In this document: positions 1-64,000 of the stretch, one piece after another
Layout: every line of letters starts with the position of its first letter
Numbering within the stretch: position 1 is the first letter of the stretch
DNA from: Acidobacteriota bacterium
GTDB lineage: Bacteria > Acidobacteriota > UBA6911 > RPQK01 > JAJDTT01
Assembly (NCBI GenBank): GCA_965263035.1
Contig: OZ253580.1
Span: 2,432,001-2,496,000 of the forward strand
Direction: 5' to 3'
DNA: 64,000 nt
Translations under genes and position numbers: made by a program
Notes under the pieces: generated by a model
What the model was told of the DNA's origin: nothing
Seen by the model: the letters and a program-made list of their open reading frames with translations, nothing else
The model's database searches: none

Positions 1-4
1 GTCC

Positions 5-1363
5 CATAAGAGCTAACTAGATTAATATCCCAGAAAGTGGCTATCAACGTGATTGGACCTTCTCCGGGGAGGTTCTTCCAAGGACGCCGAGATTTCGCGC
101 CATTCGGCGAACATGCGTCTCAGGGAATACGCCGGTTCGATGGCTCGCGTGACTTGGTTCAATGCGAATTTGAAGTCACGCCACGGGCTGGGAGTCCTGT
201 CCGGTCGCGACGTCGTATCCCCAGGGGGAAATGGTCCGCGCATGGCGGACCACCTTTTCGACCAGCAGCGCCACCAGCAGCTTGCCGTACAACCAGGCCT
301 GGGCGCTTGCCTCATCGTGCTTCGGCAGGTGCCCGAGCTGGGCCAGGGACTTGAAGCGCTTGAAGACCAGTTCGACTTGCCAGCGCAGGCGGTACCACTC
401 CAGCACTTCGGCCGCTGGGAATTTCTCCGCTGGGTAGGTTGTGAAAACGATGACGAAGCGCGCGAACCGCAGGGTTTCGGGCTGGACCTGCTTGCCCTTG
501 CGCTGAGCCGTCCGACGGATCTTGGCATGCGCGACTTCGATGGCTTCGCCGGTCTTGCGCACCGCGCAGATCCGGCCCGCCACGGGTGGCCCGGACCGGG
601 CCACTGTGCGGACCCTCCAACTGCCGACCGGCCCCGGTCGCAGCAGCGTTTCCACGGCTGCGAGCAGGTCGAACGCTTGGCCGGCCTCGGTTTCCAGCAG
701 CAGCGATCCGGTGTTCACGCGCACCGTCACGGACCCTCCGCCAGCCGCGACGTGCTGAATCCCGACCGCAGTCGAGTAGCCGCGGTCGGCCAGCACGTAG
801 TCGCCCGGCCGGATCGGGAACTGCCTGAACGACTCGCTAGTGCCGCGCCCCTGCGTCGCGGTCAGCTTGAAGAAATCACAGCCGAGCGAAGGCAGGTTGA
901 CGCTGTAGTGAAGGCGCCACACCGACCCGGTCCGGCCGGGCTCGCGCACGGTCGTCGCATCGAACGCCCGCACTTGGAAGCCGGCGCTCTTCGACACCGC
1001 GATGCCATGCTCCCGGAACAGTTCCACGCAGAGGGCGTAGAGCCAGTCGCGGGATTTCCTCAGCCGCTTGAGCAGGGCCACGTCGGACAAATCGGCCAGG
1101 CTCGCTTGCCGAGCCCGCACCACGGTTTCGCGCAAGGAATGCCCGCAGCCGAGATGGATCAGCAGGGTACGCAGCAGGTTTTCCGGCGACTTGTCCTTGC
1201 GCAGTCCCTTCAGGGCTCCGGTCGAGGCCGCCAGATCCAGCCAATTGGCTGGGAAAAATGACACCAGCAAGTCCCAGTCCTCATTCGCAGCCGCATTTAC
1301 TACCGTTCCGCTCATGCCCTCACTATACAAGATAGCGGTCAGGCAATCAGATTAGCGCTTATG
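5..1363 (-). mobile_element. IS4-family (IS186/IS421-like) insertion sequence
   Basis: Terminal inverted repeats CATAAGAGCTAA (5-16) and TTAGCGCTTATG (1352-1363) resemble IS186 ends; encloses a DDE transposase; the right flank GGACGGCGTCC ends in GTCC, matching positions 1-4 (partial target duplication). Confidence 0.85.
176..1330 (-). CDS. IS4-family DDE transposase
   Basis: Motifs FDAT, LADRGY and the YREK signature YRLRWQVELVFKRFKS. Confidence 0.9.
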   Translation of the reverse strand: MYSEGMSGTVVNAAANEDWDLLVSFFPANWLDLAASTGALKGLRKDKSPENLLRTLLIHLGCGHSLRETVVRARQASLADLSDVALLKRLRKSRDWLYALCVELFREHGIAVSKSAGFQVRAFDATTVREPGRTGSVWRLHYSVNLPSLGCDFFKLTATQGRGTSESFRQFPIRPGDYVLADRGYSTAVGIQHVAAGGGSVTVRVNTGSLLLETEAGQAFDLLAAVETLLRPGPVGSWRVRTVARSGPPVAGRICAVRKTGEAIEVAHAKIRRTAQRKGKQVQPETLRFARFVIVFTTYPAEKFPAAEVLEWYRLRWQVELVFKRFKSLAQLGHLPKHDEASAQAWLYGKLLVALLVEKVVRHARTISPWGYDVATGQDSQPVA

Positions 1364-4143: not shown

Positions 4144-4219
4144 TGGTGGAGGTAATCGGATTCGAACCGACGACCCCCTGCTTGCAAAGCAGGTGCTCTT
4201 CCAACTGAGCTATACCCCC
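4144..4219 (-). tRNA. tRNA-Ala(TGC)
   Basis: GGGGGTATAGCTCAG...TTGCAA...GGTTCGAATCC...TACCTCCACCA cloverleaf, 76 nt. Confidence 0.97.
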
Positions 4220-4402: not shown

Positions 4403-5044
4403 GTCGCGGTAGGGACGCCGGTTGCCCAGCGCCCCCCGCGCAGATCCGTGCGTGCCCGTTAAGGCACACGGCTCCTACCTCAGGTAATGACGGCAGGTCG
4501 CGACGCCCGCCGTATCCGACCCCCGCCTGTGTCACGGTAGCCCGGCTCTGAGTCCGGTCCGTACTTTGGTGAGCCGAATTCCCCTTGGTTCCACCCCTTC
4601 GCTCCACCGACTCCGCAGAGAGTTCCCCCTCCTTGTTCGCCCGCTTCATCACTACTATGGGTGAATCCGATTGCTTCCTCTCTCCCCTCATGGGTTACGG
4701 CTTTCCCCTTTCCCACAAGGCCCCGGCTTTCGCCGGGGAGAGAGTAAGCCCTCCCAGGTCCCGACACCAGATGTACGTACGTGCATGGGTTCTTTGACAC
4801 CGCAGAGCCCGGCTGCCCCTCACCCTGGCGGTCCAGCCGGTGTTGCCTTCGACCGCGACTACAGCCTCGGCACTTCCGATCAGGGAGCTTTCGATGCTCA
4901 ATAGCCTGCCCATACGCACCGCTACCGACGCTTCGCCGACACCCTCACGGGTGCCCACGCACGGCTCGCGGAGAAACGTGGATGGTTAGTCCTTCGTTTC
5001 AGCGGACTTTCACCGCCTATCTTGTGCCAGTTAGCCTGGCGCAC
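4403..5044 (-). mobile_element. ORF-less group II intron, family A (IIB-like), copy A1, inserted in a REP
   Basis: 5' GUGCG; D5 GAGCCGUGUGCCUUAACGGGCACGCACGGAUCU (AGC triad); D6 ending ...CCGCGAC; 642 nt with no RT ORF; flanks rejoin to GGGCGACGGGAA|AGCCGCCGCTCC. Confidence 0.9.
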
Positions 5045-11451: not shown

Positions 11452-12867
11452 TTACCTGGCGGCTCGGTACCGTTTGAGCTTCGAGATAATCGTCTGACGG
11501 CTCACCTGGAGCGCTTCAGCGGCCCGGCTCCGGTTATTGTCATGGACGCGGAGGGCCTCCAGGATGAGCTCGCGTTCCAGTTGCGCCAACCGCTGCTTCA
11601 AGGAACTGTGGTCGGGCCCCGATTCGGGTGGAAAGGAGATCCTCCCCGACAGCGCCGAGGGTGAAATGGGGCGGCCCGGGTCGGCAAGAATGACCAGCCG
11701 CTCCACTTCGTTCTCCAATTCCCGGACATTGCCGGGCCAGGAATAGCCGCGGAGCACTTCCAGTGTCGTTGGATCGAAACGACAGGCGAACTTGTTCAGC
11801 CGTCTGCAGGAACGCTCCAGAAAGAACTGGGCCAGCTCGTCCACGTCCTCCGGCCGGATCCTGAGGGGAGGCACCATGACGGTGAACACGTTGAGGCGGA
11901 AGAAGAGATCCTGCCGAAAGCGGCCTTCGGCGACCTCCCGGGTCAGGTCCCGGTTCGTGGACGCGACCACGCGGACGTCGACCTTCTTGGGAGCTTCCGC
12001 ACCCACCGGAAAGATCTCGCTCTCCTGAAGCGCCCGGAGCAGCTTCACCTGAAGGTCCAGCGGCGCCTCTCCCACCTCGTCCAAAAAAATAGTGCCGCCA
12101 TCGGCCAGTTCGAAGTACCCCTTCTTCTCCCCCGTCGCACCGGTGAAGGCTCCCTTCTTGTGACCGAAAAACGCGCTCTCCACCAGGTCGGCCGGGACGG
12201 CGCCGCAGTTGACCGGCACGAAGGCCTCCTCCGCTCTGGGGCTCCCATCATGGACGTATCGGGCCAGAAGCTCCTTTCCGGTTCCGGTCTCCCCCTGGAG
12301 AAAGACCGTAGAACCGGTGGGGGCCACCCGGTCCAGCAAACGAAGCAGCGCCCTGATGGCTCGGCTGCGGTAAACGAGCCTTGGTTTGGAGTCTTCCAAG
12401 AACTGCTTTTCCTCTCGCAGCTTCAGGTTCTCCGCCTCGAGACGGCTGTTGATCCGGTGGAGCTCCCTTCCGAGACGCTCCTGCTCCCGCTTCAACTCCC
12501 AGCGGCCCAACTCCTGTTTCACCACTTTCCGCAGAGAGTGGGGATCCCAGGGTTTGGTGATGTAACGATGGACGTGCCCCTGATTGATGGCGTCCATCAG
12601 GTCCTCGGACTCGGTGTAGCCGGTGAGGATGATCCGGACCGTGTGGGGCCGGATCTGCAGCGAACGATGCAGCAGTTCCACACCACTCATGGCCGGCATC
12701 CGTTGATCGGTGATGACGGCCGAGACCCCCCTCCGGCGCAGCAAGTCCAAAGCCTCCCGGGCGGAGGAGGCCTCCAGCACCTCGTAATCGTTGATGAAGG
12801 TGCGGCGCAGCTTCTGAAGATTGCCCGCCTCGTCGTCGACCACCAGCAGTGAGTGCCTGTCATTCAT
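11452..12867 (-). CDS. Sigma-54-dependent response regulator (NtrC family)
   Basis: Receiver domain (VVDD, TDQRMP), GETGTGKE, GAFTGA, WPGNVRELEN and Fis-type HTH. Confidence 0.95.
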   Translation of the reverse strand: MNDRHSLLVVDDEAGNLQKLRRTFINDYEVLEASSAREALDLLRRRGVSAVITDQRMPAMSGVELLHRSLQIRPHTVRIILTGYTESEDLMDAINQGHVHRYITKPWDPHSLRKVVKQELGRWELKREQERLGRELHRINSRLEAENLKLREEKQFLEDSKPRLVYRSRAIRALLRLLDRVAPTGSTVFLQGETGTGKELLARYVHDGSPRAEEAFVPVNCGAVPADLVESAFFGHKKGAFTGATGEKKGYFELADGGTIFLDEVGEAPLDLQVKLLRALQESEIFPVGAEAPKKVDVRVVASTNRDLTREVAEGRFRQDLFFRLNVFTVMVPPLRIRPEDVDELAQFFLERSCRRLNKFACRFDPTTLEVLRGYSWPGNVRELENEVERLVILADPGRPISPSALSGRISFPPESGPDHSSLKQRLAQLERELILEALRVHDNNRSRAAEALQVSRQTIISKLKRYRAAR

Positions 12868-14981
12868 GATTTCAGGGGCAGCCGGACGCAGAAACGGGTG
12901 CCGCGTCCCACTTCGCTCTCCACTTCGATGGACCCTTGGTGCTGCTGCACGATCCCATAGCTGATACTCAGGCCCAGTCCCGTGCCCTGACCCACGGCCT
13001 TGGTGGTAAAGAAGGGCTCGAAGACCTTCCCCAGATGTTCCTTCCCGATCCCGGAACCATCGTCCTCGATCTCGATCACCGCCTCTCCGTTATCCGTCGA
13101 AGTCCGGATCCGAATCTCACCACGATCGGGAATGGCCTGACAAGCATTGGAGAGGACGTTCATGAAGACCTGGCTCATGCGCCCCGGGTGGCATTCCACC
13201 GGGGGCACGTCGCCATAGTCCTTCTGAATTCGGATCCGGTCGCGGTATTCGTTGTGCAGCAGGTTCAACGCCAGATCCAAAGGCTCCTGGATCGGAACCC
13301 GCTGCGTCTTGTCCACGTCCATCCTGGAGAAGGTCCTCAGGTCTCCGATGATGGCGTGGATTCGCTCGGCCCCCTCGTCGAAGTTGTCCATCAGGCGGTC
13401 GAGATCCTCGATGACGAAGTCGTAGTTGATGCGCCGCCGCAAGGAATCGAGCCTCTCTCGATCCTCGGGCTTGAGGCCGGAATGGCTATCGTAGAAGTGG
13501 ATCACCTCTTCCAACTTCTGAACGTACTGGCGCAGGAAGTCGGTGTTGCCGTAGATGAAGTTGAGGGGATTCTTGATCTCGTGGGCGATGCCGGCGACCA
13601 GTTGGCCCAGCGACGCCATCTTTTCGCTCTGGACCAGTTGTACCTGGGTGTCCTTGAGTTCCTGATACGCCTTCCGAACTTCCCGGCCGGTCCGCTCCAG
13701 CTCGCTGGTCCTCTTCTTGACCTTCTCTTCCAGGCTTCGATTGAGCTCGATCAGGGCCTGGCTCCGATCCTGAAGCGACTGGGCCATTTCATTGAAGGTC
13801 ACGGCCAACTCGCCGATCTCGTCCCGGGAGGCCACCTGCACCCGCTGGTCCAGCTCGCCGCCGGCCAGCACGCGGGCGCCCCGGGTGAGCCGCTTGACCG
13901 GGATGGTGATGCCCCGCGCGATGGAGTAGGTCAGCAGCCCCACCAGCACGGCGGTCAGCGAGACGGCCCCCAGCAGCACCTGCTTGAGGTCCTGCACGGG
14001 GGCGAAGATGTCTTCGTCGTTGATGCCCACTCCGCAGATCCACTGAAAAAATTCATGATTCACCACCGCCAGACCGCTGATCTTGGAGGTGCCGGGAGGA
14101 TACTCGTAGTAGAAATGGGTGGTTCCGGCGACGATGGCATCCTGGAGGTCATCGAGGCCGTGGTCCTCCACCAGACGCGAGCCGTAGTTGTCCACCAGGG
14201 GGACTCTCCCCCCTCCCGAACCGGGCCGATTCCTCCGGTATTTGTGCCCGATGACGGTATTCACGTCCTTTCCGAAGAGAAAGGCGTATCCGGAGGTCAG
14301 GGAGCGCTGCTCCAGGTCCTCTTCGATCTTGTCCAGGAACGCCTGGACATACTCCCAGTTCATGTAGGCCAGAACCCCTCCCACCACCGCCCCCGTCCCG
14401 GACATGAAGGGGGCCGCGAATCCGATGGATCTCTGGCGGGCGATATCGTCGTCCTGATAGGAATAGAGTTGCCGAATCAGGGGCGAGGCGTGCCAGTCCA
14501 GGTAGCCGAAACGCCCTTGACGGACCTCCTCCAGCCAACTGCCGTCCCCGGTGTAGGAAAGGAGGCTCTGCCCCTGCAGGCGCGCGAGCCGTTCCGGGTC
14601 CAGGCTCACTCCCACGGCGTTCCGGTCGATGCTGCTGGTGGAGAGCACACGGCCCTCCACATCGAACAGCACCAGCAGGTCGTAGACCTCGTGCACCACC
14701 ACCAACTGGTTCAGCAGCAGCGTGGGAGGATCGACTCGCCGGATCAGATAGTCTCCCAGTTCCCGGTGGAGGGTCATGGAGACCGTCTCCTCCTTCTTCT
14801 CCAGGATCGAAAGCCGGATGTTGTCGGCGATGTCCTGGGCGACCTGCTCCAGATAGAGGACGATCCGGTCCTGGGTGATGCGCTCTTTGGCCTGGTGGTA
14901 GGCGAAGGCACAGATGGCGGCCAACGGGATCACCGCCAAGGGGAGAATGAAGAGGACCAGTTTGTGCCGAAGGCTTCTCAC
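12864..14981 (-). CDS. Membrane sensor histidine kinase (Cache/HAMP)
   Basis: Two TM segments, HAMP (DEIGELA), H-box AGIAHEIKNPL, N/G boxes GTGLGLSI; overlaps the regulator start. Confidence 0.93.
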   Translation of the reverse strand: MRSLRHKLVLFILPLAVIPLAAICAFAYHQAKERITQDRIVLYLEQVAQDIADNIRLSILEKKEETVSMTLHRELGDYLIRRVDPPTLLLNQLVVVHEVYDLLVLFDVEGRVLSTSSIDRNAVGVSLDPERLARLQGQSLLSYTGDGSWLEEVRQGRFGYLDWHASPLIRQLYSYQDDDIARQRSIGFAAPFMSGTGAVVGGVLAYMNWEYVQAFLDKIEEDLEQRSLTSGYAFLFGKDVNTVIGHKYRRNRPGSGGGRVPLVDNYGSRLVEDHGLDDLQDAIVAGTTHFYYEYPPGTSKISGLAVVNHEFFQWICGVGINDEDIFAPVQDLKQVLLGAVSLTAVLVGLLTYSIARGITIPVKRLTRGARVLAGGELDQRVQVASRDEIGELAVTFNEMAQSLQDRSQALIELNRSLEEKVKKRTSELERTGREVRKAYQELKDTQVQLVQSEKMASLGQLVAGIAHEIKNPLNFIYGNTDFLRQYVQKLEEVIHFYDSHSGLKPEDRERLDSLRRRINYDFVIEDLDRLMDNFDEGAERIHAIIGDLRTFSRMDVDKTQRVPIQEPLDLALNLLHNEYRDRIRIQKDYGDVPPVECHPGRMSQVFMNVLSNACQAIPDRGEIRIRTSTDNGEAVIEIEDDGSGIGKEHLGKVFEPFFTTKAVGQGTGLGLSISYGIVQQHQGSIEVESEVGRGTRFCVRLPLKS

Positions 14982-15059: not shown

Positions 15060-15240
15060 GTGGGAGCGCGACTTTCTTGTCGCCCACTGGGAGAGCCGGC
15101 TTTCTTGTCGCCCATTGGGAGAGGCGGTTTTCTTGCCGCCTCCTCTTCTTTGTTGCTATGCGATTCTGTAGGCAGCAAGTGTAGAGTGGGGGACTCCGTC
15201 CCCCCTGCCCCCCTGGTCGGCGACAAGAAAGTCGCCGCTC
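15060..15240. repeat. Composite REP module (3 reverse units, linker, GGGG-N7-CCCC hairpin and 1 forward unit)
   Basis: GGGAGCGCGACTTTCTTGTCGCC-type units; last unit GGCGACAAGAAAGTCGCCGCTC precedes intron B1. Confidence 0.85.
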
Positions 15241-15870
15241 GTGCGCCCGACATGGGCTGTATCTAAGGGATGAAAGATCCCAAGGGAGGTGATGGGACCA
15301 ACCCTAGCCGAACCGCAAGGCGTAGCCGCGAGGTGAAGCTGAAGGAAGCGGAAGGCAAACCCACGACCGCAGGAACACGAACCGGCAGCGAGGCCGGGTG
15401 CGGGCGGTGAGCTGGCGAGCAACAGCGAAACCCGAACCCCATCCAGACGTACCAGGTAGAGCCGGGCGGCCCGGGGGGAAAGATGCAGCACCTTACTCGG
15501 GGAGATCTCAAGGGTGAGAGCCTTTGAGAAGTCAGCAGAGGTCATAGTAGCGAAGAAGCCGGATAATGCCGGTGGAGCGAAGGACCGAAGGAGTCGGACG
15601 GGCCCTATGGTGGACTCGTCAGCGGGATCGCAACTACCTCCGGAAACGGGGCGGGGGGAGGCCCCTCGGACCCGGCACGGAAGGCCCAAGGGTGGAACCC
15701 GTCAAGCCGGAAGGGCGGAGATCAAGTCCCAGCGGCGGCGAAAACCGGAAAGAAAGGCCCTTTACGAGGCTCGAAAGAGCCTCGAGTGACTCCAACCGCC
15801 GGATACTGAAAACGGTACGTCCGGTGGTGTGGGAGGGTGCAGGGGCGCAATCCCCTGCACTCGACCCGAT
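15241..15870 (+). mobile_element. ORF-less group IIC intron, family B, copy B1
   Basis: 5' GUGCGCCCGACAUGGG; IIC-like D1-D3 (UGAAGGAAGCGGAAGGCAAAC, AAGUCAGCAGAGGUCAUAGUA); short D5 AACCGCCGGAUACUGAAAACGGUACGUCCGGUGGUG (CGC triad); 3' end CCCGAU; 630 nt, no RT. Confidence 0.92.
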
Positions 15871-15874
15871 CCGT

Positions 15875-16987
15875 TCAGGCGGGTCGGAAGGTCTCGGATC
15901 GAACGGTGATCCGATCGATCCACTCCAGGTCTGGTTCGTAACCGATCCCGGGGTCCGTGGAAGGAGTGATGGTCCCGTCCGAGTCGACTTCGATGGGAGG
16001 ACGAGCCGTGTCCCGATGGAAATAGCGGCGGCTGGCCGAGACGTCTCCGGGGAGAGTGAAGTTCTCCAGAGTGGAGAGAGCCACATTGTGGGCGCGTCCG
16101 ATGCCGGTCTCCAACATCCCTCCGCACCAGACCGGAACGCCTCGGGCCTGGCAGACGTCGTGGACCGCCTTGGCCTCGGTGTGTCCCCCCACACGCCCCA
16201 TCTTGATGTTGACGATGCGGCAGGCTCCCACGGCGATGGCATGGTCCGCGTCCCGCCGGTGGCGAATCGATTCGTCCAGACAGATGGGGGTCCGGAGCCG
16301 GGCCTGGAGCTCGACGTGCCGGAAGACGTCGTCGTACTCCAGGGGCTGCTCCATCATCAGCAGGTTGAACTGGTCCAGTTCCGCCAAGTGGTCGAAGTCG
16401 GCCAAGCCGTAGGCGGAGTTGGCGTCCACCATGAGCGAGATCGTGGGAAAGCGCTGGCGGACGGCGGCCACGATGTCGAGGTCCCAACCCGGCTTGATCT
16501 TGATCTTGATCCGCTGGTATCCCGCCTCCATCTCCTCCTCGATCTTGCGCAGGAGAATGTGGGGGTGATCCTGGATGCCGATGGAGACGCCGCAGGGGAT
16601 CCGGCGATGGCGTCCCCCCAGAAGCTTCCACAGGGGCACTCCCGCCGCCTTGGCCTGGAGATCCCAGAGCGCCGCCTCCAGACCGGCCTTGGCCATGGGA
16701 TGCCCCCGCACCGATCGGACCCAGCCCGGAAACTCGTCCGCCCGGCTGAAGCGGACATCCAGCATCCGAGGGACCAGGAACCGGCTCAGGACCGGCCAGA
16801 CGGTGTCCACCGTCTCATAGCTGAATCCTGGCGCATCGTCGGCGACACACTCACCCCAGCCGGAGAGCCCGTCCGCCCGGACTTCCGCCAATAGGACCCG
16901 GCGGCCGTAGACCCGGCCGAAGCTGGTCTCGAAGAAATGGACGAGAGGAAGGCTGATTTCGCGAACGACAACCCGCTCCAGCTTCAC
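15875..16987 (-). CDS. menC: o-succinylbenzoate synthase / N-acylamino acid racemase (enolase superfamily)
   Basis: FETSFG, RIKIKIKPG, VDANSAY, EQPL, DESI and WCGGMLETGIGRA motifs. Confidence 0.88.
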   Translation of the reverse strand: MKLERVVVREISLPLVHFFETSFGRVYGRRVLLAEVRADGLSGWGECVADDAPGFSYETVDTVWPVLSRFLVPRMLDVRFSRADEFPGWVRSVRGHPMAKAGLEAALWDLQAKAAGVPLWKLLGGRHRRIPCGVSIGIQDHPHILLRKIEEEMEAGYQRIKIKIKPGWDLDIVAAVRQRFPTISLMVDANSAYGLADFDHLAELDQFNLLMMEQPLEYDDVFRHVELQARLRTPICLDESIRHRRDADHAIAVGACRIVNIKMGRVGGHTEAKAVHDVCQARGVPVWCGGMLETGIGRAHNVALSTLENFTLPGDVSASRRYFHRDTARPPIEVDSDGTITPSTDPGIGYEPDLEWIDRITVRSETFRPA

Positions 16988-18627: not shown

Positions 18628-18855
18628 GGAGCGGCGGTTTCCAGCCGCCGGACTCCCAAGGAAACAAGGGGGCGGGCGTGGAGCGGCGGTTTCCAGCCGC
18701 CGGACTCCCAAGGGAACAAGGGGGCCGGCGTGGAGCGGCGGTTTCCAGCCGCCGGACTCCCAAGGGAACGACGGGGCGGGCGTGGAGCGGCGAATAGAAG
18801 AGGGGGCGACTGGAAATCGCCCCTCCTTTGGGCGACAAGGATGTCGCCCCTCCGG
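18628..18855. repeat. Tandem 52-bp REP-containing repeat (3 full copies and 1 partial) plus 2 inverted REP units
   Basis: GGAGCGGCGGTTTCCAGCCGCCGGACTCCCAAGG... starting at 18628, 18680, 18732 and 18784 (partial). Confidence 0.9.
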
Positions 18856-23915: not shown

Positions 23916-24545
23916 ATCGGGTCGAGTGCAGGGGATTGCGCCCCTGCACCCTCCCACACCACCGGACGTACCGTTTTCAGTATCCGGCGGTTGGAGTCAC
24001 TCGAGGCTCTTTCGAGCCTCGTAAAGGGCCTTTCTTTCCGGTTTTCGCCGCCGCTGGGACTTGATCTCCGCCCTTCCGGCTTGACGGGTTCCACCCTTGG
24101 GCCTTCCGTGCCGGGTCCGAGGGGCCTCCCCCCGCCCCGTTTCCGGAGGTAGTTGCGATCCCGCTGACGAGTCCACCATAGGGCCCGTCCGACTCCTTCG
24201 GTCCTTCGCTCCACCGGCATTATCCGGCTTCTTCGCTACTATGACCTCTGCTGACTTCTCAAAGGCTCTCACCCTTGAGATCTCCCCGAGTAAGGTGCTG
24301 CATCTTTCCCCCCGGGCCGCCCGGCTCTACCTGGTACGTCTGGATGGGGTTCGGGTTTCGCTGTTGCTCGCCAGCTCACCGCCCGCACCCGGCCTCGCTG
24401 CCGGTTCGTGTTCCTGCGGTCGTGGGTTTGCCTTCCGCTTCCTTCAGCTTCACCTCGCGGCTACGCCTTGCGGTTCGGCTAGGGTTGGTCCCATCACCTC
24501 CCTTGGGATCTTTCATCCCTTAGATACAGCCCATGTCGGGCGCAC
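23916..24545 (-). mobile_element. ORF-less group IIC intron, family B, copy B2
   Basis: Reverse complement appears identical to B1 (630 nt); 5' exon ends GGCGACAAGAAAGTCGCCGCTC. Confidence 0.92.
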
Positions 24546-38496: not shown

Positions 38497-38574
38497 TGGC
38501 AGGCCAGGAGGGAATCGAACCCCCAACATCCGGTTTTGGAGACCGGCGCTCTACCAACTTTGAGCTACTGGCCT
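38497..38574 (-). tRNA. tRNA-Trp(CCA)
   Basis: AGGCCAGTAGCTCAA...CTCCAAA...GGTTCGATTCC...CTGGCCTGCCA. Confidence 0.96.
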
Positions 38575-38586
38575 ATTGAATATCAT

Positions 38587-38736
38587 TTATCGCGCCTCGC
38601 GGTGTGCCACGTGGCGACGACACCAACTGCAATATTTTCTCAGCTCGAGCCGCACGCGCTGAGTCTTCCTGTTCTTGGTCGTACTATAGTTCTTCCTGTG
38701 GCAAGCGGTGCATCGGAGGGTGATGATATCGCGCAT
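38587..38736 (-). CDS. rpmG: 50S ribosomal protein L33 (zinc-binding type; absent from the ORF track)
   Basis: Manual translation MRDIITLRCTACHRKNYSTTKNRKTQRVRLELRKYCSWCRRHVAHREAR. Confidence 0.95.
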   Translation of the reverse strand: MRDIITLRCTACHRKNYSTTKNRKTQRVRLELRKYCSWCRRHVAHREAR

Positions 38737-38740
38737 CGGC

Positions 38741-39928
<1,188 letters not shown>

Positions 39929-39967
39929 GATGGAACTCCTGAATCAGCCTTGCCTGGTCAGTTGGAA

Positions 39968-40039
<72 letters not shown>

Positions 40040-40079
40040 ACATACCCGTCTCCCCGGTTTCTGTCCACGTGGCCACTGT

Positions 40080-40155
40080 TGGAGCGGGAGACGGGACTCG
40101 AACCCGCGACCGATAGCTTGGAAGGCTATTACTCTACCAACTGAGTTACTCCCGC
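40080..40155 (-). tRNA. tRNA-Gly(TCC)
   Basis: GCGGGAGTAACTCAG...CTTCCAA...CTCCCGCTCCA. Confidence 0.96.
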
Positions 40156-40218
40156 CCTCGACCGTATGCGAAAAATCGAGTCCGTTCTCTCTAGATCCCG
40201 GAAGGGCGGCTTCTGGTC

Positions 40219-40303
40219 TGGAGGGGGCAGGATTCGAACCTGCGTAGCCCCGAAGGGCGACGGGTTTACAGCCCGTTGCCTTTATCCACTCGACCACCCC
40301 TCC
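40219..40303 (-). tRNA. tRNA-Tyr(GTA)
   Basis: GGAGGGG...CTGTAAA...long variable arm...CCCCTCCA. Confidence 0.95.
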
Positions 40304-40512
40304 TCATTGCATTCGGGGAATTCCTGATCCCCATCCGCCCCGTGGTGTCGCTCCTGCCAGTGCACCCCACCTTCCTGCAAAGCAGTCCCATTGCCAGGGA
40401 GGATACGGGAAGTGCCAAATTATACGCACTTCGGGGACCATATTCAAACTGAAAAATGGACGAACTGAGGCCGCCATTCCCGGCACCCGAGGGTAACCTT
40501 GCTGCGAGGGCG

Positions 40513-40584
40513 AGCTGGCGAAGGGAATCGAACCCCCAACCTACTGATTACAAATCAGTTGCTCTACCCTTGAGCTACGCCAGC
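40513..40584 (-). tRNA. tRNA-Thr(TGT)
   Basis: GCTGGCGTAGCTCAA...TTTGTAA...CGCCAGCT; no encoded CCA. Confidence 0.94.
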
Positions 40585-41848: not shown

Positions 41849-42292
41849 TCAGACAACCTTGCGTCCTTTTCCCACGAAGTGCTCGCGGAGCACGTCGACG
41901 TTGCCTTCGACCCGAGCGATGCGGTCGCCGAGCGATGCTTCGACCTTGGCGATGCGTTCCGTAAGGGATACTTCGACCTGAGCGATGCGTTCCCTAAGGG
42001 ACACCTCGACCTGAGCGATGCGTTCCGTAAGGGATACCTCGGCCTGAGCGATGCGCTCCCTAAGGGACACCTCGACCTGCCCAATTCGTTCCGTGAGCGA
42101 GACTTCGACCCGGACAATGCGGTCACGGTTTTTGCCGATTTCACGGGTGGCGTCACGCAGGTCCGAGCGAATGCCCGCCAATTGTACGTTGAGATCCCGG
42201 CGGCTGGCCCGGAATTGGGTGAGGATGAGGCCGGTGGCGGTCAGGATGAGGCCACCGAGCGAAACGATGATGATCGTGATTTCGAACGTCAT
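41849..42292 (-). CDS. Small membrane-anchored coiled-coil protein with 11-aa tandem repeats
   Basis: N-terminal TM; VEVSL(T/R)ERIAQ-like repeat x6 encoded by 33-bp DNA repeats (about 41920-42110). Confidence 0.75.
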   Translation of the reverse strand: MTFEITIIIVSLGGLILTATGLILTQFRASRRDLNVQLAGIRSDLRDATREIGKNRDRIVRVEVSLTERIGQVEVSLRERIAQAEVSLTERIAQVEVSLRERIAQVEVSLTERIAKVEASLGDRIARVEGNVDVLREHFVGKGRKVV

Positions 42293-50000: not shown

Positions 50001-50158
50001 GAGCGGCGGTTTTCTTGCCGCCGATTGGGGGGGGTAGGGGGGACGATTAGTCCCCCCTCCTCTTCGTCTTCTTCCTTCTCAATCCGGAGTGGGCGACAAG
50101 AAAGTCGCCCCTCCCAGCGGGCGGCAAGAAAGCCGCCCGTCCTAGCGGGCGACAAGAA
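49998..50158. repeat. Composite REP module, type 2, with extra units
   Basis: Starts within the TAG stop; the last unit GGGCGACAAGAA is split by intron A2. Confidence 0.85.
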
Positions 50159-50801
50159 GTCGCGGTAGGGACACCGGTTGCCCAGCGCCCCCCGCGCAGA
50201 TCCGTGCGTGCCCGTTAAGGCACACGGCTCCTACCTCAGGTAGTGACGGCAGGTCGCGACGCCCGCCGTATCCGACCCCCGCCTGTGTCACGGTCATCCG
50301 GCTCTGGGTCCGGTCCGTACTTTGGTGAGCCGAATTCCCCTTGGCTCCATCCCTTCGCTCCACGGACTCCGCAGAAAGTTCCCCCTCTTTGTTCGCCCGC
50401 TTCATCACTACTATGGATGTATCCGATTGCTTGCTCTTTCCCCTCATGGGTTACGGCTTTCTCCTTTCCCACGAGGCCCCGGCTCTCGCCGGGGAGAGAC
50501 CAAGCCCTCCCAGGTCCCGACACCAGATGTACGTACGTGCATGGGTTCTTTGACACCGCGGAGCCCGGCCGTCCCTCACCTTGGCGGTCCAGCCGGTGTT
50601 GCCTTCGACCGCGACTACAGCCTCGGCACTTCCGATCAAGGAGCTTTCGATGCTCAATAGCCTGCCCATACGCACCGCTACCGACGCTTCGCCGACGCCC
50701 TCACGGACGCCCACGCACGGCTCGCGGAGAAACGTGGATGGTTAGTCCTTTCGTTTCAGCGGACTTTCACCGCCTATCTTGTGCCAGTTAGCCTGGCGCA
50801 C
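50159..50801 (-). mobile_element. ORF-less group II intron, family A, copy A2
   Basis: Close paralog of A1; flanks rejoin to GGGCGACAAGAA|AGTTGCCCCTCC. Confidence 0.9.
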
Positions 50802-50812
50802 AGTTGCCCCTC

Positions 50813-51487
50813 CTATTCCTTCTCGAAAAGGAGAAACTCCCTTTCTCTCAATCCGGCTCTCCTTGGATTCTCGCGGATATATTCCAGGCACTTCAAAAAG
50901 TGCAGAGGGTGCCGGATCAACCGATCCCAATAGTCTTTCTGCCAGATCTTGGCGTATTTTCCGGTCTTCTGGTTGATCACATGAGCCGTAAATCCCTTCC
51001 AGGATCTGACGATGTCTCTGAGATGATGAGAGCCAAGAGGGCGAAACAGCACATGGACATGGTTGGGCATCACGACGAAGGCGGCCAGTTCGTAACGCCG
51101 GCCGTCGAAATGCCGCAGTGAGTCAGCCACGACTCGGGCCAAGGCCGGATCCTTCAGGAGGCAGAACCCGTTCCCTTGATCCAGCCAGTCCTCGATTCGT
51201 CGAGAGAATTGATTGACGTAGCGTTTCGCCGTCCGCGCATCCCAGGGTCTTGGATGGTGTTTCAACCAGAATCTTCGTTCTTCCCGCCACTGATCCAGTT
51301 TGGCGTGTGGAAGCGAATCTCCCAGCCGCCAAGTCACGAAGACGAAGTGTTCACGCTTGTGCCAATGGGGCAGGCGGTTGTACCAAACGTCAATGGTTCC
51401 AGACTGATCAAAAGAGGAGCCGAAGCTTTCCAGCCACCAATTCTTCGAATCGCATGCCACAAATTTCCTAACGATCCCCTCACCCAA
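50813..51487 (-). CDS. REP-associated tyrosine transposase (RAYT, IS200-like Y1 HUH)
   Basis: LPHW...FVTWRL N-terminus, VVMPNHVH (HUH), SWKGFTA, IWQKDYWDRLIR and YIRENP; REP arrays on both sides; start uncertain. Confidence 0.88.
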   Translation of the reverse strand: MGEGIVRKFVACDSKNWWLESFGSSFDQSGTIDVWYNRLPHWHKREHFVFVTWRLGDSLPHAKLDQWREERRFWLKHHPRPWDARTAKRYVNQFSRRIEDWLDQGNGFCLLKDPALARVVADSLRHFDGRRYELAAFVVMPNHVHVLFRPLGSHHLRDIVRSWKGFTAHVINQKTGKYAKIWQKDYWDRLIRHPLHFLKCLEYIRENPRRAGLREREFLLFEKE

Positions 51488-51927
51488 TCGACGATAGATT
51501 GGGAGTATCCATGTTGCAAGTGGTGGGTGCTAATCGGTGTTTCCATCCCGTGTCGTTAGTACGTGATCTGTCCGGTCCAAAGGGCACAGGGTTAGGAGGA
51601 GCGTTCTTCCGCCGGAGGTGAGGCGGAGATCGAGCTGGATCCAGCGGGCGCCGTGCAGGGGGCGATGAGTGGACCGATAACTGGATCGAGGGACCTGAGA
51701 TCGTCGACGTCAGTCCTCCGGGAGGTCCGGATACGCCCTGGGGAGCGTCGGGTCAAGCCTCCGGCTCCTCCGCTTCGCTGCGGCCCTTCGGGTGACCCGG
51801 CGCTCCCCAGGGCGTGAAGAGCTTTCATGGCCGTAAGCAAGCTTCCGGCCAGACTTGACCGGAAGTTCGACAGACGGCCATCAGGGGGTCCACACGCTCC
51901 CTTTCCTCACGGGGTCTCTCCGTGGCC

Positions 51928-52875
51928 TCAGAAGGTCGCTCGGGGCGCTACGGGCAACCAGGTGCGGTCCTGCCGGACGAGGGTGTTGGCCAGGACGATA
52001 AGCTTGCGCATGACGGCGACGAGGGCCACCTTGCCGGGCTTGCCGCGCTCGCTCAGCCTCCGGTACACCTCGGCCAAGTCGGGGTTCCAGCGCAGGGCGG
52101 CCACCGCCGGCATGTACAGGAGCCGTCGCGCCCGCGCCCGTCCGCCCCGGATGAAGGCCCGGCCCTGCCAAGCCCCCGACTCGCGCGGAACGGCGGCCAG
52201 CCCGGCCAGACTGGCGGCGGCCTTGCCGCTGAGGGCGCCCAGCTCGGGCATCTCGGCCAGCAGACCGGCGGCGGTGGTGGCCGCGATCCCGGGAATGGAG
52301 GTGAGGATCTCCAACTTGCGGGCCCGCGCCTCGTCGGCCGCAATCAGCGTCTGCAATTTGCGGTCGATGGCGCGCAGGTGGCGCTCGAACATGTTGATCT
52401 GGATCTGGTTCTGCTGTTTGAGCAGGGGTTCGCGGAGCTGTCGGCGGCGGTTGAGCGCGGCCGTGCGCTGGCGCATCAGCGCGTCCCGGGACGTCTGCAG
52501 ATCCTGGAGCCGGCGTTGCGTTTTGGACGGCACCTGGGTCCGGCGCGGCTCCAGCGTGGCGGCCAGCTGGGCCAGTTTCCGAGCGTCTACGGCGTCGGTC
52601 TTGGCGCGGCTCCCGGTCGCCTCGGCGAAGCGCCGCGCCTGCCAGGGGTTCACCTTCGCCAGCGGCAGCTTCGCTTTGGACAGCGCTTCCTCGAGGTCCC
52701 GGTGGTAGGGACCGGTGGCCTCGTACGCGATGCACTCGACCGGAGTTCCGATCCAATCAATCAGCGCCCGGAAGCCGGCCGGGTCATTGTCGAACTGGGC
52801 GGAATGGCCGTCGGCCAGCCGGTGCGCGTCCAGGTGCGCTTTCGAGATGTCGATGCCTACGGTATGCTGTTTCAT
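51928..52875 (-). CDS. IS110-family transposase/recombinase
   Basis: VGIDISK, YEATG, AKTDAVDA, SIPGI and PRESG motifs. Confidence 0.94.
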   Translation of the reverse strand: MKQHTVGIDISKAHLDAHRLADGHSAQFDNDPAGFRALIDWIGTPVECIAYEATGPYHRDLEEALSKAKLPLAKVNPWQARRFAEATGSRAKTDAVDARKLAQLAATLEPRRTQVPSKTQRRLQDLQTSRDALMRQRTAALNRRRQLREPLLKQQNQIQINMFERHLRAIDRKLQTLIAADEARARKLEILTSIPGIAATTAAGLLAEMPELGALSGKAAASLAGLAAVPRESGAWQGRAFIRGGRARARRLLYMPAVAALRWNPDLAEVYRRLSERGKPGKVALVAVMRKLIVLANTLVRQDRTWLPVAPRATF

Positions 52876-53055: not shown

Positions 53056-53175
53056 AGCGGCGGTTTTCTTGCCGCCGATTCGGGGGGTAGGGGGGACGAT
53101 TAGTCCCCCCCTCCTCTTCGTCTTCTTCCTTCTCGATCCGGAGTGGGCGACAAGAAAGTCGCCCCTCCCAGCGGG
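53056..53175. repeat. Composite REP module, type 2
   Basis: Nearly the same as 50001-50120. Confidence 0.85.
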
Positions 53176-53237
53176 CGGATTCTGTCCACCCCGTCCATTG
53201 GCCGGGTCGGGGTGAGTGGTGATCTGGCTCGGACATC

Positions 53238-56949: not shown

Positions 56950-57581
56950 ATCGGGTCGAGTACAGGGGATTGCGCCCCCGCACCCTCCCACACCACCGGA
57001 CGTACCGTTTTCAGTATCCGGCGGTTGGAGTCACCCGAGGCTCTTTCGAGCCTCGTACAGGGCCTTTCTTTCCGGTTTCCGCCGCCGCTGAGACTTGATC
57101 TCCGCCCTTCCGGCTTGCCGGCCTCCACCCGTGGGCCTTCCATGCCGGGTCCGAGGAGGGTTCCCCTCGCCCCGCTGTCGGAGGTGGTTGCGATCCCGCT
57201 GACGAGTCCACCATAGGGCCAGTCCGACTCCTTCGGTCCTTCGCTCCACCGGCATTACCCGGCTTCTTCGCTACTACGACCTCTGCTGACTTCTCAAGGG
57301 CTCTCACCCTTGAGATCTCCCCGAGTAAGGTGCTGCATCTTTCCCCCCGGGCCGCCCGGCTCTACCTGATGCGTCTGGATGGGGTTCGGGTTTCGCTGTT
57401 GCTCGCCAGCTCACCGCCCGCACCCGGCCTCACTGCCGGTTCGTGTTCCTGCGATCGTGGGTTTGCCTTCCGCTTCCTTCAGCTTCGCCTCGCGGCTTCG
57501 CCTTGCGGTTCGGCTAGGGTTGATCCCATCACCTCCCTTGGGATCTTTCATCCCTTAGATACAGCCCATGTCCGGGCGTAC
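56950..57581 (-). mobile_element. ORF-less group IIC intron, family B, copy B3 (diverged)
   Basis: Paralog of B1/B2; 5' end GUACGCCCGGACAUGGG; 5' exon ends AAGAAAGTCGCCGCTC. Confidence 0.88.
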
Positions 57582-62577: not shown

Positions 62578-62772
62578 CTGATCTCCGTTGAAGTCCCGAA
62601 TGGGGCGCCTCCGGATCCCGGCGAACAGGAACAGCCTACGTTTTGCGATGAATCCGGTCTATACGAAGCATTCTTCCGTTGGCCGGCGGCGATTGTCAAC
62701 GTTCAATACATATAACGACGGCCGCGAAGAATAGATGATCGATCCTTGAAAAACGTGTCCATCAAACTCGAG

Positions 62773-64000
62773 AGTATCCATGTTGCAAGTGGTGGGTGCT
62801 AATCGGTGTTTCCATCCCGTGTCGTTAGTACGTGATCTGGCCGGTCCAAAGGGCACAGGGTTAGGAGGAGCGTTCTTCCGCCGGAGGTGAGGCGGAGATC
62901 GAGCTGGATCCAGCGGGCGCCGTGCAGGGGGCGATGAGTGGACGGATCAACTGGATCGAGGGACCTGAGATCGTCGACGTCAGTCCTCCGGGAGGTCCGG
63001 ATACGCCCTGAAGAGCTTTCATGGCCGTAAGCAAGCTTCCGGCCAGACCTGACCGGAAGTTCGACAGACGGCCATCAGGGGGTCCACACGCTCCCTTTCC
63101 TCACGGGGTCTCTCCGTGGCCTCAGAAGGTCGCTCGGGGCGCTACGGGCAACCAGGTGCGGTCCTGCCGGACGAGGGTGTTGGCCAGGACGATGAGCTTG
63201 CGCATGACGGCGACGAGGGCCACCTTGCCGGGCTTGCCGCGCTCGCTCAGCCTCCGGTACACCTCGGCCAAGTCGGGGTTCCAGCGCAGGGCGGCCACCG
63301 CCGGCATGTACAGGAGCCGTCGCCCCCGCGCCCGTCCGCTCCGGATGAAGGCCCGGCCCTGCCAAGCCCCCGACTCGCGCGGAACGGCCGCCAGCCCGGC
63401 CAGACTGGCGGCGGCCTTGCCGCTGAGGGCGCCCAGCTCGGGCATCTCGGCCAGCAGACCGGCGGCGGTGGTGGCCGCGATCCCGGGAATGGAGGTGAGG
63501 ATCTCCAGCTTGCGGGCCCGCGCCTCGTCGGCCGCAATCAGCTGCTGCATTTTGCGGTCGATGGCGCGCAGGTGGCGCTCGAACACGTTGATCTGGGTCT
63601 GGTTCTGCTGTTTGAGCAAGGGTTCGCGGAGCTGTTGGCGGCGGTTGAGCAGGGCCGTGCGCTGGCGGATCAGCGCGTCCCGGGCCGTCTGCAGTTCCTG
63701 GAGCCGGCGTTGCGTTTTGGACGGGGCCGGGGTCCGGCGCGGATCCAGGCTGGCGGCCATCTGGGCCAGTTTCCGAGCGTCTACGGCGTCGATCTTGGCA
63801 CGGCTCCCGGTCGCCCGGGCGAAACACCGGGCCTGCCAGGGGTTCACCTTGGCCAACGGCAGCTTCGCTTTGGACAGCGCTTCCTCGAGGTCCCGGTGGT
63901 AGGGGCCGGTGGCCTCGTACGCGACGCACTCGTCCGGAGTTCCGATCCAATCGATCAGCGCCCGGAAGCCGGCCGGGTCATTGTCGAACTGGGCGGAATG
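62773..64000 (-). mobile_element. IS110-family element B, copy 2 (left end outside the window)
   Basis: Right end AGTATCCATGTTGCAAG... matches 51504 onward. Confidence 0.9.
63122..64000 (-). CDS. IS110-family transposase (5' part outside the window)
   Basis: Close paralog of 51928-52875; AKIDAVDA, SIPGI and PRESG. Confidence 0.9.
   Translation of the reverse strand, partial: HSAQFDNDPAGFRALIDWIGTPDECVAYEATGPYHRDLEEALSKAKLPLAKVNPWQARCFARATGSRAKIDAVDARKLAQMAASLDPRRTPAPSKTQRRLQELQTARDALIRQRTALLNRRQQLREPLLKQQNQTQINVFERHLRAIDRKMQQLIAADEARARKLEILTSIPGIAATTAAGLLAEMPELGALSGKAAASLAGLAAVPRESGAWQGRAFIRSGRARGRRLLYMPAVAALRWNPDLAEVYRRLSERGKPGKVALVAVMRKLIVLANTLVRQDRTWLPVAPRATF

Follow-up and report, generated by a model that had tools for sequence, protein, structure and literature searches.

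In a 64,000-nucleotide (nt) stretch of the chromosome of an Acidobacteriota bacterium (GenBank assembly GCA_965263035.1, contig OZ253580.1, positions 2,432,001 to 2,496,000), which we call the window, a short group II intron lies on the forward strand between two reverse-strand genes. The intron, here named B1, is 630 nt long (15241-15870, +), has no open reading frame (ORF), begins with GTGCG and ends with CCCGAT. A histidine kinase gene (12864-14981, -) lies on its 5' side and an enolase-superfamily gene (15875-16987, -) on its 3' side. B1 is antisense to these two genes, with 4 nt separating its 3' end from the stop codon (15875-15877) of the convergent enolase-superfamily gene. An earlier reading of the DNA letters (the sequence-only reading) had proposed that B1 is an ORF-less group IIC intron that uses the hairpin of a repetitive extragenic palindrome (REP) as its insertion site. 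We found that B1 is one of 24 related copies in the genome, that every copy directly follows a GC-rich hairpin and the four bases GCTC, and that occupancy of such sites differs between the two replication strands.

Intron B1 and its copies in the genome

The boundaries of B1 were set by comparison with two other copies in the window, B2 and B3 (Table 1). Homology among the three ends right after ...CCCGAT. The span first proposed for the element, 15218-15875, therefore ran 5 nt too far, and the intron ends at 15870. The mean column identity of the three copies was 92% in an alignment that included the flanks.

The proposed IIC identity was supported both by the RNA and by the protein encoded by related copies. 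Comparison of B1 with the Rfam models (cmscan) gave matches to RF02001 (group-II-D1D4-3, 81.4 bits) and RF01998 (47.2 bits), and a local search with RF00029, which covers domains V and VI, matched 15794-15870 (39.0 bits, E 4.9e-6), ending at the last conserved base. The minimum free energy (MFE) fold of the 630 nt has the usual D1-D6 layout of a group II intron (Table 1).

Using blastn, we identified 24 intron loci in the genome, which is a single contig of 6.198 Mb with 62% G+C. Nineteen are intact ORF-less copies of 630-632 nt, aligned end to end (1-630) and 95-100% identical to B1; three are interrupted ORF-less copies, and two are full-length copies. Thus 22 of the 24 lack the ORF, a ratio of ORF-less to full-length copies of 11:1. 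The full-length copies are 1848 nt long (genome 531335-529488 and 2574643-2572796) and 99.7% identical to each other. Both contain a 515-codon open frame with an intact reverse transcriptase (RT) gene, the ORF being at intron positions 538-1767. Intron positions 521-1757, where this ORF lies, are missing from the 630-nt form, in agreement with the earlier statement that the window copies encode no RT.

The intron-encoded protein (IEP; P0001) of the full-length copies, the class C RT that the sequence-only reading had suggested looking for, is 409 amino acids long and has RVT_1 and GIIM domains, a TIGR04416 match of 363 bits and the residues YADD. The domain search found no endonuclease domain in it, as in an endonuclease-less (En-less) RT/maturase. 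Its best match in the PDB was the GsI-IIC RT (6ar1, E 1.6e-133, 449 bits). The IIC RT 7uim (E 2.6e-101, 343 bits) and 5hhl/5hhj were also among the closest structures, and P0001 was far from LtrA (IIA; E 8.5e-35, 124 bits) and 6me0 (IIB; E 1.2e-30, 110 bits). The other RT genes in the genome belong to a different intron family.

The three interrupted copies carry other mobile elements. Two of them (genome 3067891-3069672 and 3923464-3925242) are interrupted at differing positions by the same 1.78-kb insertion sequence, which encodes an rve/HTH_21 transposase and has 13 blast matches in the genome, nine of them full length. The third (genome 5180577-5185272) has lost intron positions 121-264 and carries a 4.7-kb insertion that encodes a 710-amino-acid large serine recombinase (Resolvase, Recombinase, Zn_ribbon_recom).

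A hairpin, GCTC and C at the insertion sites

At all 24 loci the 5' exon, inspected by eye, is a GC-rich hairpin followed by GCTC, and the 3' exon opens with C at 23 of them. A script that searched for hairpins found one at 23 of the 24 occupied sites, compared to 10% of the 26,037 GCTCC sites genome-wide. Given that the hairpin and GCTC precede every copy, the association is not due to chance. The three window copies begin directly after hairpin-GCTC, as had been noted, and the 3' exons of B1 and B2 start with CC, so that their exons rejoin as GCTC|CC. The exception in the 3' exon is B3, in which it opens with T (TC).

The hairpins themselves fall into several families. Seventeen of the 24 are strict REPs (GGCGRC-N6-GYCGCC) and three more are variants of this sequence, which bears out the proposal that the REP hairpin is the target. 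Two others are GGGGGTTGNAAACCCCC, a repeated palindrome with 14 hits in the genome and none in a reversed-sequence control, and one is GGGGGAC-N6-GTCCCC, also a repeated palindrome (104 hits and three in the control). Overall, palindrome families related to the REP gave 71, 104 and 14 hits, compared to 0-3 in the reversed-sequence controls. The remaining hairpin, GGCCATCAGGTCGATGGCC, also followed by GCTC, is unique in the genome. It lies inside a Zn-dependent alcohol dehydrogenase gene (ADH_N, ADH_zinc_N), where the intron (genome 436206-436835) is inserted in antisense orientation and truncates the gene ~47 codons before its end, an ectopic insertion. No run of T residues follows the hairpin at any of the 24 sites, and we found no copies after ordinary terminators unrelated to the REP; the four sites just described use other hairpins. 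These four sites indicate that the determinant is a hairpin followed by GCTC and C and not the REP sequence itself. REPs are used as targets because they supply this combination in bulk.

There are 212 strict REPs in the purine-loop orientation, and 178 of them are outside called genes, a count that depends on a crude gene caller by which 74% of the genome is coding. The REPs are arranged as arrays with 28-nt spacing, and inverted REPs lie upstream of many of the target REPs. The four bases that follow the hairpin (the foot) are GCTC in 111 cases, CCTC in 40 and another sequence in 61. Introns occupy 17 of the 111 GCTC-footed REPs but none of the 101 with other feet (Fisher p 1e-5), and the comparison with the CCTC-footed REPs alone gives the same picture (0/40 occupied, p 0.0066). 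The 94 GCTC-footed strict REPs that are empty are intron-less paralogous sites, and in 93 of them the next base is C.

The specificity for the foot is matched by a sequence in the intron. The sequence-only reading had placed GAGC, the complement of GCTC, in a loop CUG-GCGAGCAA-CAG and had named it as a candidate for exon-binding site 1 (EBS1), which pairs with intron-binding site 1 (IBS1) in the exon. We located this loop at 15412-15425. In both the Rfam alignment and the fold, GCGAGCAA is an 8-nt loop in which GAGC occupies positions 3-6. There is a second GAGC in the stem just upstream of the loop, so complementarity alone is undecided between the two, and it is natural variation that decides for the loop. 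The intron was found in five of the eight congeners searched and in some more distant relatives. Exon GCTC occurs together with loop GCGAGCAA in the source genome (G000), in G004 (one copy) and in G031 (one copy; a relative of the same order), whereas exon CCTC occurs together with loop GCGAGGAA, which contains GAGG, in G001 (one copy), G008 (one copy) and G003 (six of six copies). The GAGC in the stem is constant in all congeners compared, whichever foot the exon has.

We also examined the pairing in distant IIC introns. These were drawn from 80 loci in public genomes that encode IEP relatives (47-72% identity), with the 5' splice site and the loop located by nhmmer; loci were kept if the match started at model position ≤3 and reached position 190 and if the intron opened with a GTGYG-like word. 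In 31 distinct distant introns, loop positions 3-6 and the last four exon bases formed 90 of 124 possible Watson-Crick pairs, compared to 44.4 ± 4.8 after shuffling the exons among the introns (0 of 5000 shuffles reached 90), although kinship among the introns inflates this test. The loop finder returned no loop in four introns (L068, L093, L085 and L096) and a misregistered loop in four more (L025, L027, L028 and L037); these were kept or dropped as the script had it, and the score of 90/124 is therefore an underestimate. The pairing extends over exon ends as unlike as CTA, CCA, GTT, TTG, TCCT and ACGT. Together with the compensatory change among the congeners, this covariation identifies the loop GAGC as EBS1.

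The first base of the 3' exon, the candidate IBS3, was C in 13, T in one and G in three of 17 relatives and C in the five congener copies read, and a base that hardly varies among close relatives gives no handle for placing EBS3. The bases before IBS1 are the hairpin itself, and conservation there is indistinguishable from EBS2-IBS2 pairing.

Table 1. Intron B1, its target site and the other two copies in the window. Positions are those of the window unless marked as intron positions. REPIN, REP doublet forming hairpin.
Feature	Position	Strand	Basis
G-rich hairpin GGGGGACTCCGTCCCCCC, within the spacer of the REPIN-like composite to which the target REP belongs	15188..15205	+	read directly
REP hairpin GGCGAC-AAGAAA-GTCGCC (GGCGACAAGAAAGTCGCC), the target-site DNA stem-loop of B1	15219..15236	+	sequence
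IBS1, GCTC; the REP foot and the final four bases of the 5' exon of B1	15237..15240	+	24/24 copies
Copy B1, ORF-less IIC intron, 630 nt	15241..15870	+	Rfam, alignment, MFE fold
Domain I core	15322..15489	+	RF02001
EBS1 loop GCGAGCAA, closed by GCUG/CAGC; GAGC at 15417-15420 complements IBS1	15415..15422	+	Rfam alignment, fold, covariation
Domains II-III	15492..15585	+	RF01998
Domain IV remnant without ORF; short GGCTC-GAAA-GAGCC hairpin at the former ORF site	15590..15793	+	comparison with full-length copies, fold
Domain V: CGC triad position, AC bulge, short upper helix	15795..15828	+	RF00029 alignment, fold
Domain VI	15830..15868	+	RF00029 alignment, fold
IBS3 candidate, C; opening base of the 3' exon of B1	15871	+	C in 23/24 copies and in the 5 congener copies with the 3' end read
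D1 and DII	intron positions 2-297		MFE fold of B1
DIII	intron positions 300-346		MFE fold of B1
DIV	intron positions 350-553		MFE fold of B1
DV	intron positions 555-588		MFE fold of B1
DVI	intron positions 590-628		MFE fold of B1
Copy B2, 100% identical to B1; REP hairpin as in B1 at 24567-24550, GCTC 24549-24546	23916..24545	-	alignment
Copy B3, 632 nt, 95% identical to B1; degenerate REP 57604-57586, GCTC 57585-57582	56950..57581	-	alignment

Replication strand, spread and relatives of the intron

The position of dnaA (2,872,067) coincides with the minimum of the cumulative GC skew, and the sign of the skew changes again near 5.85 Mb. Relative to this origin, 20 of the 24 copies have leading-strand polarity, that is, they sit in the lagging-strand template (binomial p 0.0015). 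With the terminus placed anywhere between 5.5 and 6.2 Mb, 19-20 of the 24 have this polarity. Passages of Miura et al. 2022 (PMC8919778), citing Robart et al. 2007, report such a preference for the lagging-strand template in class C introns. The same bias is seen among target sites that are otherwise equivalent. Of the strict REPs with a GCTC foot, 14 of the 42 in leading-strand polarity are occupied (33%), compared to three of the 69 in the opposite polarity (4%; Fisher p 6.6e-5). The bias is thus not due to where the targets lie, and occupancy that depends on the strand is what insertion into the lagging-strand template would be expected to produce.

The orientation of the introns relative to genes is less uniform. 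B1, B2 and B3 are each antisense to both neighbours, and to this extent the earlier observation that the copies lie antisense to the adjacent gene stands. It does not extend to the genome, in which the upstream gene is co-oriented with the intron at 12 loci and on the opposite strand at 12. The antisense placement of the three window copies is a coincidence of the window.

All ORF-less copies of the source genome share one architecture, in which the GGCTC-GAAA-GAGCC hairpin replaces the deleted positions. Five complete ORF-less copies, each at its own site with its own flanks, are 100% identical, which indicates that the ORF-less form multiplied after the loss of the ORF. Loss of the ORF has itself been recurrent, as the deletion junctions differ among congeners: there are three different junctions in the genus (loci L004, L005, L006 and L021 compared with the source-genome copies). 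The ORF-less copy of G003 keeps the first four codons and is 100% identical in D1-D3 to the full-length copies of that genome, and the ORF-less copy of G008 has yet another junction. The two parts of the source-genome ORF-less form have different affinities. Its D1-D3 is 97.7% identical to the resident full-length copy and 94.5% identical to the ORF-less form of G001, whereas its domain IV is 90.5% identical to the G001 form and 78.6% identical to the resident full-length copy. These split affinities hint at exchange or recombination, or at concerted evolution, with the resident helper.

We found empty sites in related genomes as well as in the source genome. B1 is absent from the orthologous locus in seven of seven congeners, and in one of these, G006, the locus has the same composite with GCTC|C unoccupied. 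The composite, which is shared by 13 of the 17 copies at strict REPs, is REPIN-like: its inverted REP is followed by a spacer containing a G-rich hairpin and then by the target REP. Such composites are more diverged than the introns and also occur without an intron. In two metatranscriptome libraries, for which the data examined were assembled contigs, a contig runs from the REP into the downstream gene with the intron missing (15240 to 15871) and 12 extra letters at the joint. We considered whether this joint represents ligated exons and rejected this; the extra letters indicate an intron-less allele of a related strain.

The use of REP-type hairpins may not be limited to this genome. In a tree of the IEP and its relatives from 43 of the 80 loci, chosen for a defined 5' splice site and at least 330 amino acids of open RT frame, obtained by a quick search without bootstrap and left unrooted, the IEP fell in a group of 15 (Shimodaira-Hasegawa-like approximate likelihood ratio test, SH-aLRT, 100). 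All 14 other members of this group lie 3-4 nt downstream of GC-rich hairpins that lack a T-run; in the other part of the tree, T-runs precede 20 of 29 introns. For two of the relatives (L027 and L029, in the Bryobacterales metagenome-assembled chromosomes G041 and G042), the hairpin is GCACGGC-N1-4-GCCGTGC, and it is a high-copy repeat there, with 274 and 55 hits per strand compared to three and one for a control pattern. REP-type targeting may therefore be a property of the sub-lineage and not of this genome alone.

The REPs of the window are associated with other repeats and with a second, unrelated family of group II introns that lack an ORF (family A; 642 nt, RF02005, 165 bits). Family A has two copies in the window (4403-5044, - and 50159-50801, -) and seven copies and one fragment genome-wide; no ORF-containing family A copy in the genome reaches the RF02005 cut-off. 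These introns are inserted within the loop of the REP, on the other (pyrimidine-loop) strand, with the 5' exon ...GGAG[C/G]GGCG[A/G]CT and the 3' exon TTCTTGTCGCC or TCCAGTCGCC. They have leading-strand polarity in eight of eight cases, and a co-oriented gene precedes six of seven. One of them adjoins a 224-amino-acid ORF (50813-51487, -) with a weak Pfam match to Y1_Tnp (IS200-like, 35 bits), a possible REP-associated tyrosine transposase, which lies between near-identical REP-bearing repeats (50052-50124 and 53106-53178). It is one of two weak Y1_Tnp matches in the genome (39 and 36 bits). Elsewhere in the window there are three tandem 52-nt units (18628-18792), each with the REP variant GGCGGTTTCCAGCCGCC, and five 33-nt tandem units (41905-42102).

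Interpretation and relation to known introns

We conclude that the B1 family very probably derives from a bacterial group IIC (class C) intron retroelement, is ORF-less and non-autonomous, and homes to REP hairpins. It belongs to a genuine IIC lineage specialised on REP-type hairpins and dominated by mini-introns that are predicted to depend on an RT supplied in trans. In the mechanism that we envisage, the intron RNA would form a ribonucleoprotein (RNP) with the RT/maturase made from the two full-length copies elsewhere in the chromosome, and this RNP would reverse-splice into single-stranded DNA. The target would be a GC-rich DNA hairpin, then the four bases that pair with EBS1 (GCTC with GAGC), then a C that presumably pairs with EBS3. 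Nearly all hairpins of this genome that fit such a target are REP-type palindromes, and the REP population, with its conserved foot GCTCC, would act as the pool of homing sites, a role otherwise filled by U-tailed terminators or attC sites. Insertion would take place mainly while the strand carrying REP-GCTC is the lagging-strand template at the replication fork. Five identical copies and two intact RT genes suggest that the family may be active at present.

The same arrangement could reflect ordinary IIC behaviour if the REPs were the tail-less ('I-shaped') terminators of the host and the name REP only a matter of naming. Half of the copies (12/24) are indeed downstream of a co-oriented gene, at 58-225 nt with two of them further away. 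Passages of Miura et al. 2022 (PMC8919778) describe class C introns that follow predicted terminators, L-shaped as well as I-shaped, and parts of the literature propose roles for REPs in termination and mRNA stabilisation. However, at the other 12 sites the upstream gene is on the opposite strand, and the three window copies are antisense to both neighbours. None of the hairpins has a T-run, one site is on the antisense strand inside a coding sequence, and the hairpins are high-copy repeats in inverted pairs and arrays in a genome that has a Y1-transposase-like gene. We therefore consider it unlikely that the REPs matter only as terminators. Another possibility is that the introns spread as passengers, a REPIN-like composite and its intron having been duplicated or transposed together by a Y1 transposase or by recombination. 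The composite shared by 13 of the 17 strict-REP copies, with homology that often extends ~100 nt upstream, could be explained in this way. But homology ends exactly at the last intron base, and the 3' flanks are unrelated; the introns are 97-100% identical while the composites upstream of them differ more; composites without an intron exist in the source genome and at the orthologous locus of G006; and the same intron is present at the four sites with other hairpins, including the unique one inside a gene. Foot specificity and covariation of EBS1 are properties of RNA-guided insertion. The unrelated 3' flanks, the empty composites and the EBS1 covariation largely refute passenger spread, which we regard as highly improbable.

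It is also conceivable, though we would give it only a small chance, that the ORF-less copies are inert relics that spread in the past and now neither splice nor move. Three copies are broken by other mobile elements, and domain IV has diverged from that of the helper. Arguing against inert relics are the complete identity of five complete copies at different sites, the 97.7% identity of the D1-D3 core to resident full-length copies that have the same EBS1 and intact RT genes, and the absence of B1 from the orthologous locus in all seven congeners and from the related allele in two RNA libraries. A weak hint in the same direction is that the contig word depth of the intron was ~100-245 fold that of its flanks in the two RNA libraries, compared to ~15-21 fold in run X1 (kind unrecorded), although contig word depth is a poor measure of expression.

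Several observations weigh against a mobile IIC family homing to REPs, the explanation that we prefer. Splicing, RNP formation and mobility are all computational predictions. The RF00029 score is slightly below the gathering score of 40. The ORF-less and full-length copies share only 78.6% identity in domain IV, so it is not certain that the helper protein binds, and the intron-less joint in the RNA contigs, with its 12 extra letters, is not a product of splicing. Four of the 24 copies, B1 among them, have the disfavoured polarity, and the strand bias could partly reflect selection after insertion. Finally, the counts of gene orientation depend on the crude gene caller.

Group IIC introns are a model for the recognition of structured DNA by an RNP, and the targets described for them are terminators and, in one lineage, attC sites. 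The B1 family is like the terminator-inserting IIC introns (B.h.I1, O.i.I1, GsI-IIC and those of Eubacterium rectale) in its small ribozyme, En-less RT, DNA stem-loop, 3-4-bp IBS1-EBS1 pairing, single candidate IBS3 base and preference for the lagging-strand template, traits attributed to Robart et al. 2007 and Mohr et al. 2018 in passages of PMC8919778 and PMC7306698. It differs from them in that its targets are REP-type repeated palindromes without a T-run, with insertion 4 nt after the stem, in that only every second copy has a co-oriented gene upstream, and in that 22 of 24 have no ORF. Like the group IIC-attC introns (S.ma.I2 lineage), as these are presented in parts of PMC4424553 and PMC3001079, it has adopted a different repeated, recombination-related stem-loop as a homing site. 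That stem-loop is, however, a REP/REPIN hairpin dispersed over the chromosome and not the attC site of an integron; the stretches read showed no integron context.

The excess of ORF-less copies has a parallel outside the IIC class. The introns of Thermosynechococcus elongatus are not IIC introns (they are IIB/CL). Like the B1 family they are present in high copy number with many ORF-deleted derivatives, and sections of Mohr, Ghanem and Lambowitz 2010 (PMC2882425) describe these derivatives as served in trans by the RTs of related copies. This family is the precedent for the trans-mobilisation that we predict here. The T. elongatus introns recognise longer sequence targets that have diverged into families, whereas here one 4-nt EBS1 and a structural cue define ~100 equivalent sites. 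A passage of Zimmerly and Semper 2015 (PMC4424553) states that bacterial ORF-less introns are rare and nearly always found beside related ORF-containing introns.

Insertion into REPs has been described for ISPpu9, ISPpu10, IS1397 and a group II intron of Pseudomonas putida KT2440; for the last of these, a table in Tobes and Pareja 2006 (PMC1525189) associates two of nine copies with REPs. In the B1 family, by comparison, one REP family accounts for the sites of 20 of 24 copies and repeated palindromes for those of 23 of 24, the insertion position does not vary, and a base-pairing rule is demonstrated by covariation. REP/REPIN systems with REP-associated tyrosine transposases (RAYTs) have the same substrate, REP hairpins in inverted pairs that are thought, in the portions of PMC3116915 and PMC3333891 consulted, to be processed as single-stranded DNA. 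Unlike a RAYT, the intron is a retroelement that parasitises REPs and is not part of the machinery that mobilises them. A literature search for IIC introns that home to REPs, with supplements and subscription papers outside its reach, returned only the entry for two of nine copies in PMC1525189, and neither 'repeat' nor 'palindrom' occurs in the text of Waldern et al. 2020 (PMC7306698).

The mechanism is an extension of known IIC biology and not a new principle, and the genome provides a clean natural system. The B1 family departs from known IIC introns in the kind of stem-loop that it has adopted, in a constant spacing of 4 nt, in being uncoupled from transcription units, in outnumbering of full-length by ORF-less copies (11:1), and in an EBS1 that switches with the REP foot between species. 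A broader reading, to which we give somewhat better than even chances, joins these features. A class C sub-lineage would have moved from U-tailed terminators to the REP/REPIN palindromes of its hosts and would track the foot by single-base changes in EBS1. ORF-less mini-introns would arise repeatedly and outnumber their helpers as hyperparasites of the helper RT and of the REPIN population, with a core kept in step with the resident helper and a domain IV of different history. Strand-dependent occupancy would be an in vivo record of the extrusion of REP hairpins on the lagging-strand template, and family A, a second and unrelated ORF-less family, would make use of these REPs too, from the opposite strand and by insertion into the loop.

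One genome thus offers ~110 near-identical natural sites, about a sixth of them filled, with built-in controls in the form of the wrong foot (0/101), the wrong replication strand (4% compared to 33%) and a natural compensatory change of EBS1 in sister species. How much the hairpin, IBS1, IBS3 and fork polarity each contribute to IIC homing can be tested directly, as can the trans-mobilisation of ORF-less copies. The findings also connect two fields. They suggest that, in vivo, REPs form exposed hairpins on the template of the lagging strand, which is the state thought to be used by REP-associated Y1 transposases, and they show that retroelements can find a niche in REP populations.

The window contains other repeated and RNA-coding features. 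Two copies of a ~600-nt repeat, 97-99% identical (51503-52114 and 62772-63308), belong to neither intron family. There is a cluster of five tRNA genes at 38500-40584 (-), and one further tRNA gene (4147-4219, -) lies just downstream of a family A intron copy.

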